Below, piece by piece: positions 11,724-21,740 of a DNA stretch of 64,000 bases; the stretch's first letter is position 1, and each line of letters begins with the position of its first letter. The notes beneath the pieces are model-generated. The model saw only the letters and a list, made by a program, of their open reading frames with translations. It had not been told where the DNA came from and made no database searches. The stretch comes from Acidimicrobiia bacterium. Its GTDB lineage: Bacteria > Actinomycetota > Acidimicrobiia > Spongiisociales > ZC4RG35. The stretch covers positions 1,472,001-1,536,000 of the forward strand of contig CBDBCY010000004.1 of assembly GCA_965203555.1 (NCBI GenBank), given 5' to 3'. Position numbers and translations under genes: made by a program.

Positions 11724-11852
11724 CCCCGTGGTTGCCACCATGCGATTGGATGAACCGGGGAACCTGTCTCAATACCCTTACCGATTTGAGATCCTCTCGG
11801 TTGGCCTTCTCTTAGTGTTTGTTTTAACAACTTAGTATTATACGGTGTTGTT

Positions 11853-11874
11853 TGTCACACCCATGGTGCATACT
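11853..11874 (+). promoter_or_regulatory. PafBC/RecA-NDp-like promoter of the DUF222-HNH gene
   Basis: TGTCAC-N10-CATACT, 7 nt before ATG 11882 (leaderless geometry). Confidence 0.6.
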
Positions 11875-11881
11875 GGTATGT

Positions 11882-13093
11882 ATGAACAGAAAAGATGTGA
11901 ACGGAACATCGGTGGTCAACCGGGTGCGTCTGTTGGCACCCACTCTGCCGGTTTCTCAGGCTTCGTCTGAGCAGTTGCGACAGCGGTTGAAGTCGACGGT
12001 CCGCGTTCAGAACCAGGCGGCGGCGATCCGCGCCGAGGTCCTGTCCGAGTTGCGCCGACGCAAAGGCGCCGAGGTGGTGGAAACCGTTTTGCAAAAGGAC
12101 GGTCTGCTGCCCCGACGGAAGGCCCGGTCAGAGGTGGAAACCGCCAAAGAATTGGAGGAACTGCCCAAGACGCGGGAGGGTTTCCAAAAGGGAGAGATCT
12201 CTGCTGACAACGCCCGGATCATCGCCGGCGCCAACCAGCGGGGAGAGATCGACGAAAATGAACTGTTGGACGGTGCCCGTTCCCAGTCTCCTGACAAGTT
12301 CGCGGCCACGGTCCGCAAACACGAACAAAAGCGTGCTCAGGATGATGGTGTTTCGAAGTTGGAGCATCAGCGGTCGCGGCGGTTCGCCAGGATCAAGACC
12401 GACCTTGAGGACGGGATGACCGTGCTGTACGGGCGGTTCGATCCGGTGACGGGTGCTCGGGTCGAGACTGCAGTGTCACGGATGATGAAACAACTGTGGC
12501 ATGAGGAAGACCCCCGGAACCGGGCCACTTCGGGTCAACGGATGGCCGACGCCCTGGCCGAACTTGTCACCCGTCAGGGAAAAGACGGCCGGTCCCAGGA
12601 TGTGCGGATGTTGCTGATCGCCGACTACCACGCGGTCAGCAAGGAACTTGGAAACCCCCGCCTGTCCGATGGAACCCCCATTCCCGCCCGGACGTTGCGG
12701 CATCTGGCCTGTGATGCTCAGATCCTGCCCGCCGTGTTCGCGGGGTCTTCGATACCCCTGGATTTGGGAAGGGCCCGCCGCAAGGCCAGCGGAACCCAAC
12801 GCGCTGCTCTCATTGCCCGCGACAAGCACTGTGTGGGCTGCGGCGCCAAAGCCTCCTGGTGTCAGGCGCATCACATCGTCCACTGGGCCGACGGAGGACC
12901 CACCGATCTGGACAACATGTGTCTTTTGTGCAGCAGATGCCACCACAAAGTACACGACAACGGCTGGACAGTACACCAGTCCCCACAGGGAAGATACTCC
13001 CTCCGCCGCCCACCGAACAGCCTCGGCCGCCCACCCCGCCGCCAGGCATCTCACCGGTACCGGCGCAGGCGAACTGTCCGACAACGCAAATGA
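11882..13093 (+). CDS. DUF222 / HNH endonuclease (REP13E12-like)
   Basis: QRMADAL, LACDA, PLDLGR, ARDKHCVGCG, CQAHHIVHWADGGPTDLDNMCLLCSRCHHKVH. Confidence 0.92.
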   Translation: MNRKDVNGTSVVNRVRLLAPTLPVSQASSEQLRQRLKSTVRVQNQAAAIRAEVLSELRRRKGAEVVETVLQKDGLLPRRKARSEVETAKELEELPKTREGFQKGEISADNARIIAGANQRGEIDENELLDGARSQSPDKFAATVRKHEQKRAQDDGVSKLEHQRSRRFARIKTDLEDGMTVLYGRFDPVTGARVETAVSRMMKQLWHEEDPRNRATSGQRMADALAELVTRQGKDGRSQDVRMLLIADYHAVSKELGNPRLSDGTPIPARTLRHLACDAQILPAVFAGSSIPLDLGRARRKASGTQRAALIARDKHCVGCGAKASWCQAHHIVHWADGGPTDLDNMCLLCSRCHHKVHDNGWTVHQSPQGRYSLRRPPNSLGRPPRRQASHRYRRRRTVRQRK

Positions 13094-13264
13094 ACCCATC
13101 CGAACCCCTGCTTCTCGACAACTAACCCGCGAAAACGACCGACACACTCTTAACCCGTTGCGCCCCTTGCCCACCCCAAAGTTCTCTTCGCGAACCCGCT
13201 GGAACGCAGGAAATAGTCAGCGCTATTACCACCATCCCAGCCAAACGGGGGGTAGTGTGAAAGC

Positions 13265-14300
13265 AATCTTGTGATTGATGTGAGCAGTCCGAGTCGGGTT
13301 GCTCGCTGAATACCATAGCCCGCCAACAGGTCGGGGAGTAGCTACCGCCGACCTTGGGTGAATAGGCGAGGCCATCTGTGTCCTCACGTCAATCACAGGA
13401 ACAACCCGATGACGTGAGGACAACCATGAAAGCGTGTGGAGGAACCCTACGAGGTTCTCGTCCAGGTAGGCACCCGCCCGACCTACTACCACAAGCGGGT
13501 GGCTTACACCGTGACCATCCCATACACGCCAAGTTGCCCACACCGTGGAGACACAGTCCCAGGTGTGTCGATGACCCGAGGCCGATAGCCCGAACCGAAG
13601 GATGGGGAGGCCCGAGCAAATCAGGCCTCCCCATCAATCTTCAGTCGAGTGATAGCTGGAGGCGAGGGCAGTCACGGGGGCCGCTGGGCGGAGCCCGGAC
13701 TCCAAATCCGAGCCTGGCGGGTTCGATTCCCGCTCCCCGTGCCATAGATGAGAGAGAAGCACTTCGCCGCCGAGCCCATCGAAGCGTATGGCGACGAAGT
13801 GGCTTTGGGCGAGCGGACGGTGTTCGGTTGGGAGATTCCCGCCCAGGAGACAAGGCGCGACTCTATGTGGAGTTGATGGCGATCAGAGTCGGATGGTCTA
13901 TGCCGGCTGTGCGGCAAGAAGGCCGGGTTAGACCTACCTCCTCCCAGGCCGAAGCGCGAGTCTGGCCGCCCAAACAGTGTGAACGGGGCGGGTGCGGGAC
14001 GTTGGCTTACCACTCGGCAGGTGCGCTGGTGTTCACGTCTGTGCTGGGCGCTGGGCAACGGGAAGATGCCGTGGATGTGGCAGATGCTTCACGATTCGGC
14101 AGGAGGGGCGTGTGGAGCCTGCGGGATCGAGAGGTTCGTGCCCCAGCGGACCAAGCCCTTCGTGGTCCGTAACCGACCGGTCCTCGGACCGAATGACTGG
14201 CCCAAAAGCGAAACGCCAAGGAGGACGCCAAGAGCCTTCAGCAACAGTGGAGGGCAGAACCCCGAGTCCGGAAGCCCCGGCATGACGAGAGGAGGTCGCT
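13265..14300 (+). ncRNA. Candidate large structured non-coding RNA or leader region
   Basis: No convincing protein; 17-bp, 13-bp and 12-bp stems plus many shorter hairpins, an embedded tRNA-like element and a possible -10 TAGTGT at 13253. Confidence 0.5.
13674..13744 (+). tRNA. Aberrant tRNA-Trp(CCA)-like element (pseudo-tRNA)
   Basis: Acceptor ACGGGGG/TCCCCGT + G + CCA; anticodon arm CGGA-CTCCAAA-TCCG; T-arm GCGGG-TTCGATT-CCCGC; D-arm reduced to CCGC-TGG-GCGG. Confidence 0.75.
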
Positions 14301-14364
14301 ATGAGCGGCAACGATGATCAAGCAGTAAAGCTGCGGAAAACACGAGTTTTGAAAGGATCGAGAC

Positions 14365-15592
14365 ATGGGAGCCTGTAAGCGAATTATCATCGCCGCTGTT
14401 GCCTTTCTGTGGCTTTTCGGCGTCATGGCCGGGTTCGTAACCCGCCCGACGCCAGCCGTAGCGGCAGGGTGTACCAAGACGACCAACACGCAAGGTCTCG
14501 ATGTGTGGAACTTCGCCGGGAACACTCGCGGAGGCTGGGCGGGGAAACCCGGTGGGGCGAGCAACTACGCCAAGACGCTTTGTGAGCAGGCAGCGGAAAA
14601 GCATGCCGCCACTACAACTACCGTGCCCGGCACGACCACGACCACGACCACTCTACCTCAGGACGATAATGATGCCGTCACGAGTGGGAGAACTGGGGGC
14701 GTGAACACCAATTCGGTTAAAACCACCACGGGTGGGACGACAGGTGTGAATGAGAACAGCCACAACCAGGCCTCGGCTTTGCCGAAGGCTTGGATTGAGG
14801 CCGCAGGGTTCATCCAGAAGCGCGGCCAAACCTTCGCGAAGTTTCTCGTAAAGGTGTCGCCCGCCAACACCAATCGCATCTACGTGAGGTATAAGGTGAC
14901 TCAGTCCGGGGGGCCCGTTGCCAAACGGGCATATCTTACCTACCGTGGCTCCTCTAACTACGCTGAGGTCGATAACGGTCAAGGGCCTATTGAAGTAGGT
15001 GTCCTGGAAGAGGTCGCCACTGAAGGCAGGATCTGGGCCCAGATCCTGCCGGCCGATGAGACGGGTGGCATCTCGTACACCCTGGCGAAGACATCCAGTA
15101 GGCCCGACAAGGTCTCCATCCGTGTGGCCGCCACCGTAACTGACGATGAGTGCGCCGAGGGCAAGGAGGATATCGACGAATATGACCTACCAGATGTGAC
15201 GGTCGGGAAGCGCACAATCAGCCCTGGGACAATCGAGGTGGACCGGTGCAAGGACGTCACCGGGAATATCGCGGCGAACGCGGCGAGCAAAATAGTGGCG
15301 AAACTTCTTCAACACTTGCCTACCGATGACTCTGAGTGCCTACACGCGTCGTGCTTTCGCCAGATCCGACACTATGAGGCGGTATACGCTTGCTTCGAGG
15401 CAAGGGTTGCGGATGCGATCGAGCATACGATCAACGTGGTTCTTGTGAATGCCCCAGGTGAGATCGAGTGGTCCGATTGTGTTATCCCGGAGGACCCCGC
15501 CTGGCCGATAATTAGCGTCGCAAAGGAAGGTAATGTCGATATCGGCGCCGATGAGATCGTCTTCAAGTTCCCAATCCAACCGGATACTTGGA
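14365..15592 (+). pseudogene. 5' part of large secreted Calx-beta-like protein, interrupted by IS21
   Basis: AAGGA RBS, signal-peptide-like N-terminus, Thr-rich linker; joins in frame with 17884-21713 once the IS and one TSD copy are removed. Confidence 0.85.
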
Positions 15593-15657
15593 TGATGACG
15601 ATCATCGAAAGTACCCAGAGTCGATCAGCGAAAGTTCCCACCCTGGGTTGGGTGGTT

Positions 15658-16443
15658 TTAGGCTAGCAGGTCTCCTTTCGGTCGGTGTTTTCGGGCTTGG
15701 GCTTGGTAGCTTCTCAGGCGGTAGCTGTCGCCGGTGATGGTGAACACCACGCTTTTGTGGAGCAGCCGGTCGAGCATGGCGGCGGCGATGGTGTGGTCGG
15801 AGAAGATCTCTCCCCACGACGCGACACCGAGGTTGGTGGTGAGAATGATCGATCCTTTTCCGTACCGTCTGGAGATGACTTGGAACAGGGTGGCGGCGTC
15901 TTCTGCCGGCATGGGCAGATAGCCCAGTTCGTCGATGATCAACACTTTGGGGGTGTTGAAGAACCGCAACGTTTGGGCCCATCGTCCTTGTAGGGCGGCT
16001 TTGCGGCACCGCGCCGCCAGGTCCGCAGCGGTGGTGTAGTACACCTTGTGACCGGTGTCTACCGCGGCGCGGCCGAGGATGACCGCCAGCATGGTTTTGC
16101 CCACGCCGGGCGGTCCGATGAACAAAACGTTGGAGGCATCGGCCAGGTAGGCCCCGGTAACCAGCTCTCTTACCAGTTTCTCGTCGACGCTGGGTTGGGC
16201 GGTGAAGTCGAAGTCTTCCAGTTGCCATCTGGTGGGGAAGTTCGCCAGTTTGAGACGGGTTTCCCATCGCCGTTGTTCGGTGGTCTCGACTTCTACTCGA
16301 AGTAGACCTTCAAGGAACTCGGTGTGGCTTTCACGGTTGGTTCGTGCCTGTTCGAGGTGGGTGGGGAGCGCCTCGGCGGCGGCGGGTAGGTTGAGGTAGG
16401 CCAGATGGCCTCGCAGCTGTTGGTACACCGATTGGTTCATCAC
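15658..16443 (-). CDS. istB: IS21 helper ATPase IstB
   Basis: LEDFDF, GPPGVGKT, IIDELGY, IILTTN, AAAMLDRLLH, GDSYR. Confidence 0.96.
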   Translation of the reverse strand: MMNQSVYQQLRGHLAYLNLPAAAEALPTHLEQARTNRESHTEFLEGLLRVEVETTEQRRWETRLKLANFPTRWQLEDFDFTAQPSVDEKLVRELVTGAYLADASNVLFIGPPGVGKTMLAVILGRAAVDTGHKVYYTTAADLAARCRKAALQGRWAQTLRFFNTPKVLIIDELGYLPMPAEDAATLFQVISRRYGKGSIILTTNLGVASWGEIFSDHTIAAAMLDRLLHKSVVFTITGDSYRLRSYQAQARKHRPKGDLLA

Positions 16444-17738
16444 AGCCCCGCTTTTCGGTTTTGTTGGTCGATGTGCCGCTGGTACACCTCCAGATCGATC
16501 ACCGTTTCGGTGTACAGGTCTCCGATACCGGCGGCGATAGCCAAAGCCGCGTCTGATGGCGGACGGTTGGGTTTGGGTTTGCAGGGTGGTTTGGTGGTGA
16601 ACTCGGCTAGGACCACGTTCTCCAAAGCGGCGGTGTGTTCGGGTAGCCGAACCACCCGTCCCATACCGCGGGGTGCCTGCTGGTGGGTGGCGACCAGCCG
16701 GCCACTGGCCGAGAACATGCTGATAGTGGGGTCACCGAGCCTCCATCGGACGGTGACCTGGGTTCCTATCACCCCTGGTGGCACCGAGTATCGGTTACCG
16801 CGTACCGATACCAGCCCGTTGGATGTCACCCTGCGCTCCAAAGTCCCTTCTGCCGGGTAAGCCACCAGGGGCAGCTCGAGGAGAGGCTCGGTCTTGGCCA
16901 GCTCACCCACCGTGCTCTCACCCCGTGGGCGAAGATCGCCCACGGTCTGGCAGAATCTGTCCAGACTGTGCTGTGCTTCGGCGATGCTGGTCACCGCTGC
17001 GGTGCGCCACCACCGCTGAGAGACATAGTGGATGGCCTTTTCCACCACGCCTTTCCGTTGAGGACGGCGCGGTGGGCACGGGTCAACAACCACCCCATAA
17101 TGTTTGGCTACCCCAACGAACGACGGCTGGATACGACCGGTGGCGGCGACCACGGTCGCCATCCGATCCACCCTCCACCGCCGCGGGGTACCCTCCAGTC
17201 GTCTCAACACCTGGTCAAGACCCTCCACCAAATGGGGTTGGTCCTGGCGGGACGTGATCCACGCCCGAAAAGCGCCCGAGTGCGACAGCACACCCACCAG
17301 CACATGAGCGGTGGCTCCCCACGGCGTGTCACGTAACTCCACCCAGTCCCACTGGCACTCCTCACCCGGTGGATGATCGATGATCGCCGTGGCCCGGCCC
17401 CTGGTACCCGCACAGGCGCCACACAACGGCCGCAGGCCCCGAAGACGGACCTTCCGCACGAACGTCGGGTAGCTCTGCTCATAGCCCAAAGCCACCACCT
17501 CGTCGAACAACGCCGACCCCCACACATGCGGATCATCAGACAACCGCTGCCGCACATACGCCTCGAACTCATCAAACAGATCCGCCCCCGCCCGGGCACG
17601 CTGACCGGGCACCCGATCGCCCGACAGATACGCTCGCACGGTACGGCGGCTCTTACCAACATGACGGGCGATAGCCGAGATCGACCACCCCCGCCTCCTC
17701 AAAGCATGAACTTCCACGCACTCCTCCAGTACCAACAT
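16440..17738 (-). CDS. istA: IS21 DDE transposase IstA
   Basis: N-terminal HTH (SISAIARHVGKSRRTVRAYL), PGEECQWDW, VDRM, KGVVE, NRYSVP. Confidence 0.95.
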   Translation of the reverse strand: MLVLEECVEVHALRRRGWSISAIARHVGKSRRTVRAYLSGDRVPGQRARAGADLFDEFEAYVRQRLSDDPHVWGSALFDEVVALGYEQSYPTFVRKVRLRGLRPLCGACAGTRGRATAIIDHPPGEECQWDWVELRDTPWGATAHVLVGVLSHSGAFRAWITSRQDQPHLVEGLDQVLRRLEGTPRRWRVDRMATVVAATGRIQPSFVGVAKHYGVVVDPCPPRRPQRKGVVEKAIHYVSQRWWRTAAVTSIAEAQHSLDRFCQTVGDLRPRGESTVGELAKTEPLLELPLVAYPAEGTLERRVTSNGLVSVRGNRYSVPPGVIGTQVTVRWRLGDPTISMFSASGRLVATHQQAPRGMGRVVRLPEHTAALENVVLAEFTTKPPCKPKPNRPPSDAALAIAAGIGDLYTETVIDLEVYQRHIDQQNRKAGL

Positions 17739-19277
17739 AAAGGGCAGGGCTCCTCTCCACAGCTAGGAAATGTGACAATCCCTTAGCTTGGAGAGAGCCC
17801 TACCCAACAACGGGCATTTACCCCCAGGAGGTGGGAACTTTCAGTGATCGAGACTGGGAACTTTCAGTGATCGCCAACATGGAGGTACGAAGGCTCCCTT
17901 TTCGACCTGGATAATGCCCCAAAGTTGCGTGTCTCTATCGTTCAATTCGGCAATGTACTGACGAAGGATGCCCCCACTACCGCACCAATAGCCGCTAGTG
18001 AGGGCAAGCTGAAATTGGGTATACACCCTAACCGCTCTGGGTGGGTAGACCTCCAACTTCATCCCGGGTCCTGGTATAGCCGGACGGATCCCTACTCAGC
18101 CAGAATACAAATCAATGACAACAGGCCGGCGGCCTCCGTCAGCGCCAACTCTCCCGATCCTGGTAAGGATGTCGTCTTCACGGTGACCATGGATACCTCG
18201 GGCAATTTCGACGTGGTTCTGAAGATTGAGCAGGAGGGGGGTGTCCTCTCCCGGACCGTCACTGAAAGGACGGTGTATGTAACAAACGGCACTGGGTCCA
18301 TCAACCTTGGCACCAAGGCCAAGACTGCTGGAACCGTGACCGCCAAGATCCGGGATGATGATTGGAACCCCTTTCGGGTCGCCACCAGGTCGGCTACAGC
18401 GGCGGTCGGTAGCCTCCCAGAGCTTTTTGTCTACAAATACCAAACAGGCACTGTGACTGAAGGCCAAACCGCCTACTTTGTCATTGCTTCCAAAGACTGG
18501 ACTCCGGTCCCGTGGGATGTGACGGCGAAATTCTTCCGGGTGCAATACGGGTCGTTCGCCAACTGGAGTGGTAAGGGACAGATCACCATCCCTGAGGGCT
18601 CGTCATACTCCAACTGGATCCGGGTCACCATTCAGAAGGACAACTGCAAGGAGTCCGATGGTTGGGTCGGCATCATCCTTGATAAGGACGACAAGTACGA
18701 ACTGGCCGAACCCTCCGCCGACAAAGTGGATGTGGTCGATAACGACGGGTCCTCGGCGGATTGCTCTAGCGTATCGACAACATCGCTTTCAACCAATTGG
18801 GCTGACACGGTGAGGATGGTTAGGACTACGGGTAGTGTGGGCGGAGGGACCACCACGACGACCACCACGACCACGACGACCACCACAACTACCACGACAC
18901 CCGTGACTACCTGCTCGTCTGGCCAGTCGAAGAAGAATGGCGTTTGTGGCTACCCGGTGCTGACTATTGAAAGGGTCTCATCGAGCGTTACCGAGGGTCA
19001 GAAGGCTGAGTTCCGCATTCGCTCGGACCGCGATCTTCCAAGGGGTACGAACGTAGGAGTACGCCCCTCGCCGAGCGGCAACTACGGTATTGGTACTGCG
19101 GTTACGTCCGTCAGGATTGACAACGGCCGGTCATGGACCTTCGGTTGGTACACCACTGATGACTCCACGGACGAGGCGAACGGTTCGGTCACCGCTACCC
19201 TGGGCTCTGGCCATGGTGATTACACGGTGGGGTCGCCTAGTTCAGCCACGGTAACGATAAGGGACAACGACGAGGCT

Positions 19278-19935
19278 CCGGTGTTGTCGGTTTCTCGGCA
19301 CTCGTCGAGTGTGACCGAGGGCGGCACTGCTTATTTCCGGGTGACCTCGGATAGGTCTGTGCCTTCCACTATTTCGGTGGGTTTTTCCCGGTCGCAGAGT
19401 GGGTCGTTCGCGAGTTGGAGCGGCAGCGGAACGGTCACCATTAGCAGCGGTAACACCCGGTCGGGGTGGATCAGCGTGAGCACTGTCAATGACAGCACAG
19501 ACGAACCGAACGGTTCGCTCACCCTCACTCTGAACAGCGGAACCGGTTACACGGTGGGGTCGCCGTCGTCTGCTTCGGTGACCGTCAACGACGACGATGT
19601 TGCGCCTTTGCCGGTGTTGACGGTTTCCCGGTATCAGTCGAGTGTGACCGAGGGCAGCACTGCCTATTTCCGGGTGACCTCGGATAGGTCTGTGCCTTCC
19701 ACTATTTCGGTGGGTTTTTCCCGGTCGCAGAGTGGGTCGTTCGCTAGTTGGAGCGGCAGCGGAACGGTCACCATTAGCAGCGGTAACACCCGGTCGGGGT
19801 GGATCAGCGTGAGCACTGTTGATGACAGCACGGACGAACCGAACGGTTCGCTCACCTTGACTCTGAACAGTGGTACCGGTTACACGATCGGGTCGCCGTC
19901 GTCTGCCTCCATCACCGTCAGGGACAATGATGAGG
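19278..19935 (+). repeat. Near-identical intragenic tandem duplication, 333-bp period
   Basis: Two copies encoding SSVTEG.TAYFRVTSDRSVPSTISVGFSRSQSGSFASWSG... Confidence 0.9.
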
Positions 19936-20332
19936 CGCCCGTCACCTGCTCGTCTGGTCAGGCTGAGAAGGATGGCGTCTGTGGCTACCCCGTGCTAACT
20001 GTCCATCAGGATGACCGATCCTCGGTTACCGAGGGTTCCTATGCCGATTTCAGGATTCGCTCTGATCGGCCGTTGCCGGGCACCCTAAAGGTGGAGGTTC
20101 TCCGGTCACAGCGTGGAGACTTCACCACCCAGACTGGTGTTACCTACTGGGAATTGGGAACGGGTAGTACCTCCGGAAGTGGGAGGATTTCGACCGTAAA
20201 TGACTCGACGGATGAGACGGATGGCAGTGTTACGGTCACGATCCGAACCCACTCTGGGTGGCGCTCTGAGTACAGGGTTGGAACACCCAACTCCGCTACG
20301 GTCACCGTCAGGGACAATGACGAGTCGGTGGT

Positions 20333-21067
20333 CACCTGCTCGTCTGGTCAGTCGAAAAAGAATGGTGTCTGTGGTTACCCGGTGCTGACTATTCGGACTA
20401 GTTCGTCGGACATCACCGAGGGCCAGATAGCCTCCTTCCAGATCCATTCTGACCGTCGCGTTCCGAGGGTGGCCCCAGCCGCGTGGCGAATGGCAGGGGC
20501 GTGGACCGTGAGAAACTGGTCCACCACAATCTCCGGAGGCGATGGACCCTGGCGCATCCTTCGGTGGCGTACTCCCGATGACTCCACCGATGAGCCGGAT
20601 GGTTCGGTGGAGATATCCTTGCGGAGTGGCTCCGGCTACAGAATGGGGTCACCATCGTCCGCTACGGTGACAATCCGGGATAATGACGAACCTACCTGCT
20701 CGTCTGGTCAGTCGAAAAAGAATGGTGTCTGTGGTTACCCGGTGCTGACTATTCGGACTAGTTCGTCGGACATCACCGAGGGCCAGATAGCCTCCTTCCA
20801 GATCCATTCTGACCGTCGCGTTCCTGGATCCCTCAGGGTGGCCCTCAGCCGCGTGGCGAATGGCAACTATGGGGCGTGGACCGTGAGAAACTGGTCCACC
20901 ACAATCTCCGGAGGCGATGGACCCTGGCGCATCCTTCGGTGGCGTACTCCCGATGACTCCACCGATGAGCCGGATGGTTCGGTGGAGATATCCTTGCGGA
21001 GTGGCTCCGGCTACAGAATGGGGTCACCATCGTCCGCTACGGTGACAATCCGGGATAATGACGAACC
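20333..21067 (+). repeat. Near-identical intragenic tandem duplication (360/375 bp)
   Basis: Two copies of TCSSGQSKKNGVCGY...IRDNDEP; the first copy is 15 bp shorter near 20465-20500. Confidence 0.9.
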
Positions 21068-21740
21068 CGCCGTTGTTCCAGTGGTCAGCATCAGTGGTGG
21101 TAGGTCTGTCACTGAGGGAGGAAACGTGGTGTTTACCCTCACCGCTACTCCGAAGCCCACGAAGACGATATCGGTCAAGGTGCATATTGCGGACCCCTAC
21201 AACGATGATCCGGGAATAACCATTTTCCTCACCGATTACAGCGAAAGGACCGTGCGCATCGGCACCAGCGGTAGGGCCACACTCTCCCTTGCCACCGATG
21301 ATGACCAGACGGAGGAGTCGGACGATGATGTGGTGGCTACCATCAAGTCGGGGACCGGGTATCGCATTGGTACTGCCTCAGCCTCGGTTCGGGTGAGGGA
21401 CAATGATGCCCCGGCCACGCCACGTGCTCGGGTTGGTAGTTATGGCAGTGTCGCCGCGGGAAATAGGTTGGGTGCCTGGGTTGGGTTCTACAATGTGGAT
21501 AACCCTCCGACCAGGGTGCGGGTCAAGATAGAACGGCCAGGGTACACCACCGTATACAGGTGGATAACCACGAGCAGCGACTCGAATGGCTGGAAGTTCG
21601 GTCGTATCTCGGAAACCACCTGGAAGGCGGGGTGGGCCAAAATCACGGTTGTGTCGGGAACCGGATACACCTTTGGGGCGACCGTCTCAATCCGAATCTA
21701 TCCCCGAAATTGATGGTGGGTAGCCGATCCCCAATCAACG

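Follow-up and report, generated by a model that had tools for sequence, protein, structure and literature searches.

The question raised by this locus is what occupies the 1.1-kb gap at positions 13250-14360, between a gene for a DUF222-HNH protein and the start of a gene for a giant Calx-beta surface protein. The window, that is, the whole stretch of 64,000 nucleotides (nt) that was analyzed, is chromosomal DNA (G000:C4:1472001-1536000) of an Acidimicrobiia bacterium with a 3.4-Mb genome of about 62% GC. An earlier note on this DNA, made by inspection of the letters, proposed that the gap encodes one long structured noncoding RNA of the GOLLD or ROOL kind, comprising a switch, a tRNA module and further domains, or else the leader of the Calx-beta gene. 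We found that the gap is composite and not a single large ornate RNA. In the reading that we favor and consider fairly probable, 13258-13432 is a member of a new family of leader RNAs that sequester the Shine-Dalgarno (SD) sequence, a riboswitch-type ON switch, and the rest of the gap is a lineage-specific 5' untranslated region (UTR).

The leader was recognized by its conservation. A blastn search of the organism's own genome gave a paralog of 13211-13483 with 87% identity (C4:1005211-1005487), and the core at 13293-13373 was found two more times on contig C1. Outside the species, conservation is limited to 13258-13432. A covariance model, R1, built from eight copies of the genus, matched 4 places in the own genome and 10 of the 16 other genomes of the genus (the member locus L093, of the same genus and at the same place as the match in genome G013, is labelled as an Acidimicrobiia metagenome-assembled genome, MAG). 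It matched none of 150 other genomes of the class Acidimicrobiia and, under stricter filters, none of 140 genomes from other genera of the family, giving 0/290 for the Acidimicrobiia genomes sampled outside the genus. A scan with a 21-nt degenerate core pattern gave at least 107 stretches in a collection of species-representative genomes, from which 80 loci were taken, and 76 stretches in metagenome contigs. Among these, R1 (E ≤ 0.001) matched 68 of the 80 genome loci, mostly over the full length and with 40-80 bits, and 38 of the 76 metagenome loci. The 12 unmatched genome loci, which include records labelled Geobacter, Mycobacterium, Porphyromonas and Rubrivivax, fit chance matches to the pattern. 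The matching records are all MAGs and carry depositors' labels from at least 10 phylum-level groups: Gamma- and Alphaproteobacteria, Nitrospirales, Acidobacteriota, Latescibacterota, Gemmatimonadetes/Longimicrobiales, Binatota, Rhodothermales, Dehalococcoidia, Limisphaerales, Acidimicrobiia and 'Candidatus Poriferihabitaceae', a list that is a lower bound and possibly skewed. Occurrence in many phyla, but in 0/290 genomes of the class outside one genus, points to horizontal spread and strong selection in a shared habitat. Five member genomes searched whole contained 1, 2, 6, 3 and 2 copies of the leader. Leaders were also seen in tandem, in L037 (1464-1798) and L112 (1500-2185), and as divergent pairs, in L077 (894-1639) and L173 (1384-1885).

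The suspicion that this RNA is uncatalogued was borne out by Rfam 15, which covers GOLLD, ROOL, HEARO, T-box, known riboswitches and ribozymes and gave no match in the whole window at gathering scores. At E ≤ 10, the region 13000-14600 gave only noise and a tRNA-Sec match of 36.2 bits (threshold, 47), and searches of 20 and 12 member loci returned ordinary tRNAs only. Searches of 72,556 plasmid and 50,697 phage records for the leader came back empty. In the literature on sponge-symbiont RNA motifs and on orphan riboswitches before secreted proteins, it is undescribed as far as titles and the openings of abstracts show. Collectively, the leader represents a real and apparently undescribed cis-regulatory RNA family.

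From 5' to 3', the family consensus consists of a -10-like hexamer, the 5' arm of a closing helix P0 (15-18 nt, variable in sequence), a linker, GUCGGG, the 5' strand of P2 (CYYGC), YGAAUACAAYAG, P3 enclosing an optional hairpin P4, CGAAUAG, the 3' strand of P2 (GCRRG), a pyrimidine-rich stretch, the 3' arm of P0, AAYGG, CCCGRC and, after about 30-60 nt, an SD sequence and a start codon. The internal loops of the core are invariant or nearly so among 78 sequences, and 5 of 90 members fold without P4. In the window, the two long stems that had been listed at the outset pair throughout (17/17 standard pairs in P0 and 13/13 in the SD-sequestering hairpin; Table 1), and two smaller ones, AGGTCGG/CCGACCT at 13328-13354 and the hairpin at 13280-13306, are both part of the minimum free energy (MFE) fold of the leader. 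The fold of 13255-13430 is more stable than that of dinucleotide shuffles (z -4.12; -4.50 for the opposite strand).

The relatives of the leader conserve base pairs. In the alignment of 90 members, which was fitted to the model, paired cells amount to 92.3%, against 66.2% after shuffling and 40-45% with the partners slid; both sides have changed in 26 of the 29 pairs, and the covariation score is 0.718 against 0.244. None of these measures was reached in any of 500 shuffles. Compensatory pairs make up 15/15 of the modelled P0, 5/6 of inner P2 and 5/5 of P3. An alignment-free test of P0 gave a duplex energy of -29.05 kcal/mol with the own partner and -14.05 kcal/mol with mismatched partners, the own partner beating all 10 mismatched ones in 92% of 78 sequences. 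Moreover, G-U outnumbers A-C in the paired cells by 348 to 42, which shows that selection acts on the structure at the RNA level, in the orientation of the downstream gene. The family has a conserved and structured aptamer-type core supported by covariation, as expected of a riboswitch.

Two further elements are less settled. A pseudoknot between GUCGGG and CCCGRC, crossing P0, can be drawn and is compatible with the data but unproven; the two segments pair in 98.2% of cells, and GUCGGG is present also in 8 members gathered independently of the pattern. Of 85 members, 68 have a palindrome of 4 nt in the loop of P4 (13338-13343 in the window), the expected share being 37%; it is most often AGCU (50 times), then GGCC, GAUC and AAUU, with loop variants such as UAGCUA and UGAUCA. 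This hints at kissing-loop dimerization or a symmetric protein site.

The start of the RNA is predicted from a -10-like hexamer, TAGTGT, which had been suggested to start transcription right at the first long stem. Of 85 members, 62 have the pattern TANNNT in the 25 nt preceding P0, and only 10 have it in a control window placed 100 nt farther upstream; it ends mostly 6-9 nt ahead of the first P0 pair. This enrichment at the same place supports TAGTGT at 13253 as a -10-like element. A consensus scan of 13050-14450 for sigma-70 promoters and terminators gave no promoter-like site and no full -35/-10 match, and a single terminator-like site, on the minus strand, within shuffle expectation.

The switch supposed in the earlier note was also found. 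P0 and the SD-sequestering hairpin are mutually exclusive, having 13383-13391 in common. In the window, the SD-sequestered conformer is the MFE structure (-71.3 kcal/mol), and forcing P0 gives -63.6 kcal/mol, a value that leaves out the energies of the pseudoknot and of a ligand. Across the family, the region from P2 to CCCGRC pairs with its own downstream sequence at -22.6 kcal/mol and with mismatched ones at -19.0 kcal/mol, the own duplex beating the median control in 73% of members, and in 73 of 85 members an SD-like word is involved in the best duplex that the P0b region forms with downstream sequence, a count made without control. Mutually exclusive helices that touch the SD, that is, an expression platform, are therefore present in the window and, more weakly but still detectably, family-wide.

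Presumably, the leader would form the 5' end of the mRNA, with P0 enclosing the P2/P3 core, the internal-loop strands and the optional P4. The 3' arm of P0, together with the preceding pyrimidine-rich stretch, could pair alternatively with the SD region, so that the RNA would toggle between a state in which the start site is hidden and one in which P0 closes and leaves the start site exposed. What stabilizes P0, the core and the pseudoknot and turns translation ON would be a small-molecule ligand or, possibly, some other factor of the cell. The outcome would be an ON switch of the riboswitch type acting on exported and surface protein genes, in this case the giant Calx-beta gene, which lies about 930 nt away and might be reached through translation-dependent protection from Rho or through processing.

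This arrangement resembles that of translational ON riboswitches (add, the adenine riboswitch of Vibrio vulnificus, is one), where the SD-masking helix and the 3' strand of the aptamer's closing helix are in competition. Common to both are a promoter-proximal core closed by a long helix, the exclusive pairing of the 3' arm and the SD, and a start codon a few nt past the SD; unlike known riboswitches, the leader matches no Rfam sequence or structure and precedes genes of exported proteins instead of a metabolic pathway. In its several copies per genome, its occasional tandems (L037) and its association with surface, adhesion, protease and secreted-protein genes, it is also reminiscent of the cyclic di-GMP (c-di-GMP) riboswitches of classes I (GEMM) and II, whose gene associations are of this kind. 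The Rfam models of these two classes, however, give no match, and a second-messenger ligand is a guess.

The genes behind the leaders are coherent only as genes of exported proteins. Most of the 104 non-redundant members are followed by an SD-preceded open reading frame (ORF) starting about 55-115 nt past the GAAUAGG box. Among downstream ORFs of 80 aa or longer, an uncharged hydrophobic N-terminal stretch was found in 43 of 72, as compared with 341 of 2,377 (14%) long ORFs of the own genome, by a rule that is crude, several 'negatives' being visibly Pro-containing signal peptides. A Pfam scan left 61 of 88 downstream proteins unmatched and otherwise gave OMP beta-barrel (3), CsgG (2), reprolysin-like (2), LRR (2), ankyrin (1) and TM2 (2-3) domains, weak matrixin-like matches (3), and TraT, BACON, Excalibur, BLIP-like, RAQPRD and GT8; two RibD_C matches and one ISL3 match were set aside as probably mis-assigned. 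Within the genus, the products of the downstream genes are secreted proteins, lipoproteins and small membrane proteins. One subgroup of leaders (L020, L025, L026 and L027; 32-128 bits) is diverged and, unlike the others, precedes a short-chain dehydrogenase (SDR) gene, behind an ORF of about 30 codons.

In the window, the downstream gene proved to be interrupted. Removal in silico of 15593-17879, an IS21-family insertion sequence, and of one TGGA copy gave a single 1,685-codon ORF (14365-21713), joining an ORF of 433 aa to one of 1,262 aa. The giant Calx-beta gene is thus the true downstream gene, now disrupted, and the 433-aa ORF is its N-terminus. The Calx-beta match of Pfam lies in the C-terminal part (the 1,262-aa ORF); a database search with the 433-aa piece returned no homolog. 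The proposal that the region is the leader of the Calx-beta gene was accordingly upheld, and 13258-13432 very likely serves this gene.

Several observations weigh against an ON switch of the riboswitch type. The pattern by which most members were gathered prescribes 21 nt of the core, and core conservation is overstated because of this; the pair counts come from an alignment adjusted to the very model they support. The pseudoknot P1 shows no compensatory change, its changes being one-sided only (U-G/U-A). The sequestor signal is modest, all 10 mismatched partners being beaten in only 31% of members, and an additional hairpin, CCCGRC/GYCGG, 3' of P0 was dropped as a family feature, since it occurs in 29 of 75 members and shows no covariation (Fisher p 0.37). 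The ATG behind the SD opens no credible protein, either in the window (248 codons) or in the paralog (8 codons), so that the leader would act on the distant gene only through coupling, polarity or processing. Finally, the genes are united by export and not by a metabolic pathway, a gene set that fits protein- or signal-responsive leaders as well as a riboswitch.

This last point leads to the alternative that survives best, namely, that the same leader is read by a protein, a small RNA or the ribosome, or is a thermosensor, and couples envelope and secreted proteins to the cellular state, e.g., secretion stress. The export signals shared by the downstream genes agree with it, the palindromic P4 loop (68/85) could be a dimerization or protein site, and masking of the SD is the logic also of RNA thermometers and protein-titrated leaders, which it would fit too. 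Near-invariant internal loops across at least 10 phylum-level groups, with covarying helices, are nevertheless typical of a ligand pocket, and thermometers lack such cores. A protein partner, moreover, would have to be common to all of these phyla or transferred with the leader, and no conserved neighbor gene was seen. We regard this alternative as rather unlikely.

A catalytic or processing role in 5' UTRs, such as that of a small self-cleaving ribozyme, is very unlikely for the leader. Its patchy spread (0/150 class and 0/140 family genomes, yet many phyla), its 1-6 copies per genome and its conserved core with a possible pseudoknot would suit such an RNA, but no Rfam ribozyme matched even at E ≤ 1-10, and the fixed position and orientation before an SD and a start codon, together with the anti-SD, argue for translational control. 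Hardly more credible is an action at the DNA level, in which the element would be an att-like or recombination site, or would terminate a mobile cassette by which promoter-leader modules are brought to surface-protein genes. The paralogs share the leader, the upstream ORF and the signal peptide and not the mature protein, related strains diverge exactly at 14270, and the distribution suggests horizontal spread, all of which would agree with a cassette. The excess of G-U over A-C pairs, however, indicates that a single strand is under selection, as RNA; the leaders have no integrase or transposase as a regular neighbor, and they had no match among the plasmid and phage records. The lone viral-contig pattern match shares its contig range with L160, where R1 gives nothing at E ≤ 1.

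Beyond the leader of the favored ON-switch reading, the gap is not of one piece. A second stretch, 14268-14389, matches C4:1005675-1005798 at 70% identity (blastn, own genome), so that the paralog consists of the leader and a gene-start module, without the intervening 780 nt or so (13484-14267), the tRNA-like element included. Since the paralog has both modules but not what lies between them, the region is composite. In the 16 other genomes of the genus, nothing past 13483 is conserved save fragments of the tRNA-like element, and the roughly 930 nt after the leader are probably a lineage-specific 5' UTR.

The folding test against dinucleotide shuffles, recommended for the whole region, was passed by the leader and by 13433-13673 (z -3.87; 0/200 shuffles as stable), the MFE fold of which contains the 12-bp hairpin at 13601-13635 that had been picked out by eye. 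It was failed by the tRNA-like stretch 13674-13744 (z +0.31) and by the 3' half (13745-14044, z -1.33, 20/200 shuffles as stable; 14045-14364, z -0.13, 39/100). The hairpins listed in the 3' half are thus at chance level for GC-rich sequence. The segment 13433-13673 has no homolog among the 16 other genus genomes. Contigs of related strains, from runs labelled sponge or coral metagenome, span 13289 or 13380 to 14270 and are unlike the window beyond. In one of them, 13289-13447 has 6 listed substitutions, 13448-13758 no more than 2, and 13759-14238 has 32, the last part also having insertions or deletions of 1 and 2 nt (and of 4 nt in the coral-metagenome contig X6). The island of near-identity, 13448-13758, whose flanks differ by about 4-6%, covers the hairpin at 13601-13635 and the tRNA-like element, which suggests that these are constrained or recently homogenized, and the rest not.

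One large multi-domain RNA of the GOLLD/ROOL type, with the tRNA module as a domain, would be consistent with the stable 13433-13673, with the near-invariance of 13448-13758 and with everything lying on one strand from a promoter-like site to a gene, and it shares with GOLLD and ROOL a noncoding, structured character and a tRNA-like gene nearby, but this view is largely refuted, because only 13258-13432 is conserved outside the species (a unit of about 170 nt, against 400-800 nt), the paralog lacks 13484-14267, the 3' 620 nt fold no better than shuffles and carry insertions and deletions, the setting is a chromosomal 5' UTR and not a phage context, and no Rfam model, those of GOLLD and ROOL included, matches.

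The statement that the gap holds no protein-like ORF stood in part. A 264-codon frame at 13378-14172 has an Arg/Pro/Gly-rich translation without a Pfam match, and codon-position GC is flat over about 13100-14300, in contrast to the flanking genes. Six-frame tblastn of the spacer against the own genome returned only the tRNA-like element, the upstream ORF module and one weak 43-aa match, and the similarity of a 50-aa ORF (13436-13588) to a 66-aa ORF of the paralog was not significant (E 0.097). Overlooked, on the other hand, was a conserved 24-codon ORF in the gene-start module, which may be a coupled upstream ORF. The counterpart of 14290-14375 in the paralog is G000:C4:1005683-1005772, and the 804-aa protein encoded there is similar to the giant protein only over the first 28 residues.

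The tRNA-like cloverleaf was confirmed by an ARAGORN call at 13674-13744. It has an acceptor stem, a 7-bp anticodon stem with one mismatch, the anticodon CCA and a T arm with a TPsiC-type loop GGTTCGATTCC. Compared with canonical tRNA-Trp, which the genome encodes elsewhere, its D arm is 7 nt shorter, nucleotides 8-9 are missing, and the anticodon is at position 29, not at about 34-36. It falls below the gathering score of RF00005 (29 bits), the best model of the clan being the tRNA-Sec already mentioned. A paralog at G000:C4:2564248-2564316 (L004 1499-1567) is 82% identical and has the same D-arm deletion, and its anticodon stem departs from that of the first copy by two compensatory pairs; the shared deletion and the compensatory pairs argue for a selected fold. 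This paralog lies 5 nt past the stop codon of a small Tyr/Trp-rich ORF and is called by ARAGORN only at a relaxed threshold. In a Latescibacterota MAG (L092 1793-1860), a 68-nt tRNA-Trp(CCA)-like element with a short D arm is flanked on both sides by ordinary tRNA genes and has a leader copy some 230 nt away on the opposite strand; its highest Rfam score, 35 bits and below threshold, came from the tRNA-like domain of tmRNA. A covariance model of the three elements, R2, scored 87 bits for both copies of the present genome and 42 bits for the canonical tRNA-Trp, and in a search of 4 other member genomes it found nothing but canonical tRNAs. Among known RNAs, the nearest are tRNA-like processing signals and pseudo-tRNAs or small tRNA-like RNAs, for example tRNA-Other of Bacillus cereus. 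The element resembles them in its cloverleaf-like form, intact T arm, Trp-type anticodon loop and two diverged copies with compensatory stem changes, and differs in its truncated D arm, the missing nucleotides 8-9, its score below the Rfam tRNA threshold and its place inside a long 5' UTR. This tRNA-Trp-like pseudo-tRNA would possibly serve RNase P/Z processing or act as a stabilizing module. As a part of the leader family, tRNA genes were considered and rejected, the 12 ARAGORN calls in 9 of 60 loci being inconsistent in position and strand and mostly ordinary tRNAs.

With the leader taken as an ON switch, its breadth over at least 10 phylum-level groups, combined with absence from the 290 class genomes outside one genus, is unusual, as is the placing of very different exported and surface protein genes under one leader. 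Widespread and strongly covarying orphan riboswitch candidates outside Rfam have become uncommon, and any of them may lead to a signal molecule not seen before. We tentatively suggest a new riboswitch class shared horizontally in one host-associated community, that of sponge and coral holobionts, which would sense a host, community or second-messenger signal and switch on surface and secreted proteins. The link to habitat rests on run labels for the window and on record names; the name 'Poriferihabitaceae' reportedly appears in a sponge genome note (PMC12859430). If it holds, the leader would mark candidate symbiosis factors straight from sequence and would define a habitat-wide RNA regulon of LRR and ankyrin (eukaryotic-like) proteins, proteases, outer-membrane proteins and giant adhesin-like proteins, and the tRNA-Trp-like RNAs without a D arm (two here and one in the Latescibacterota MAG) would be a second new class of small RNAs of this community. 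A 170-nt RNA is also a tractable experimental handle on what these uncultured bacteria sense.

Table 1. Positions in the window of the leader RNA, its parts and the surrounding features.
Feature	Position	Strand	Remarks
prfA, prmC, Sua5/TsaC gene			Neighbor genes near the gap
DUF222-HNH gene	11852-13093		Neighbor before the gap
-10-like hexamer TAGTGT	13253-13258	+	RNA start predicted about 6-9 nt downstream, at the foot of P0
Leader RNA, member of the new family of about 170 nt	13258-13432	+	Whole R1 match, 156.3 bits
P0, 5' arm	13268-13284	+	Closing helix of the core; pairs with 13383-13399
P1a, GUCGGG	13293-13298	+	Candidate pseudoknot partner of CCCGAU 13405-13410
Conserved core	13302-13370	+	P2, P3, P4 and internal loops
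P2	13302-13307 with 13365-13370	+	Part of the core
Internal loops	13308-13313 and 13360-13364	+	GAAUAC and GAAUA; part of the core
P3	13318-13322 with 13355-13359	+	Part of the core
P4 hairpin	13328-13354	+	Apical UAGCUA
SD-sequestering hairpin	13379-13391 with 13410-13422	+	Contains SD GAGGA 13416-13420
ATG	13426-13428	+	5 nt past the SD; opens a 248-codon, non-protein-like frame
Species-specific structured segment	13433-13673	+	Hairpins 13471-13501 and 13601-13635
tRNA-Trp(CCA)-like element	13674-13744	+	ARAGORN, 71 nt; truncated D arm, encoded 3' CCA
Non-conserved spacer	13745-14267	+	Probably untranslated 5' UTR; absent from the paralog
Gene-start module common to the paralog	14268-14375	+	SD AGGAGG 14290-14295 and 24-codon ORF
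24-codon ORF	14301-14375	+	Overlaps the ATG at 14365; tblastn 53% over 30 aa with the paralog
N-terminal part of the giant secreted Calx-beta protein	14365-15592	+	Signal peptide, Thr-rich; ORF 14365-15666, 433 aa
IS21-family element	15593-17879		2,287 bp; TG-initiated inverted ends, TGGA target duplication
istB/istA of the IS21-family element		-	After the 433-aa ORF, ahead of the 1,262-aa Calx-beta ORF

The surroundings of the gap add two minor observations. The inserted element belongs to the IS21 family by its istA (rve) and istB (AAA) genes, its ends and its target duplication, with Pfam matches to IstB_IS21 (4e-77), rve and Mu-transpos_C_2. Just past the DUF222-HNH gene, a 23-nt word at 13185-13207 recurs with 91% identity at three further places in the genome.

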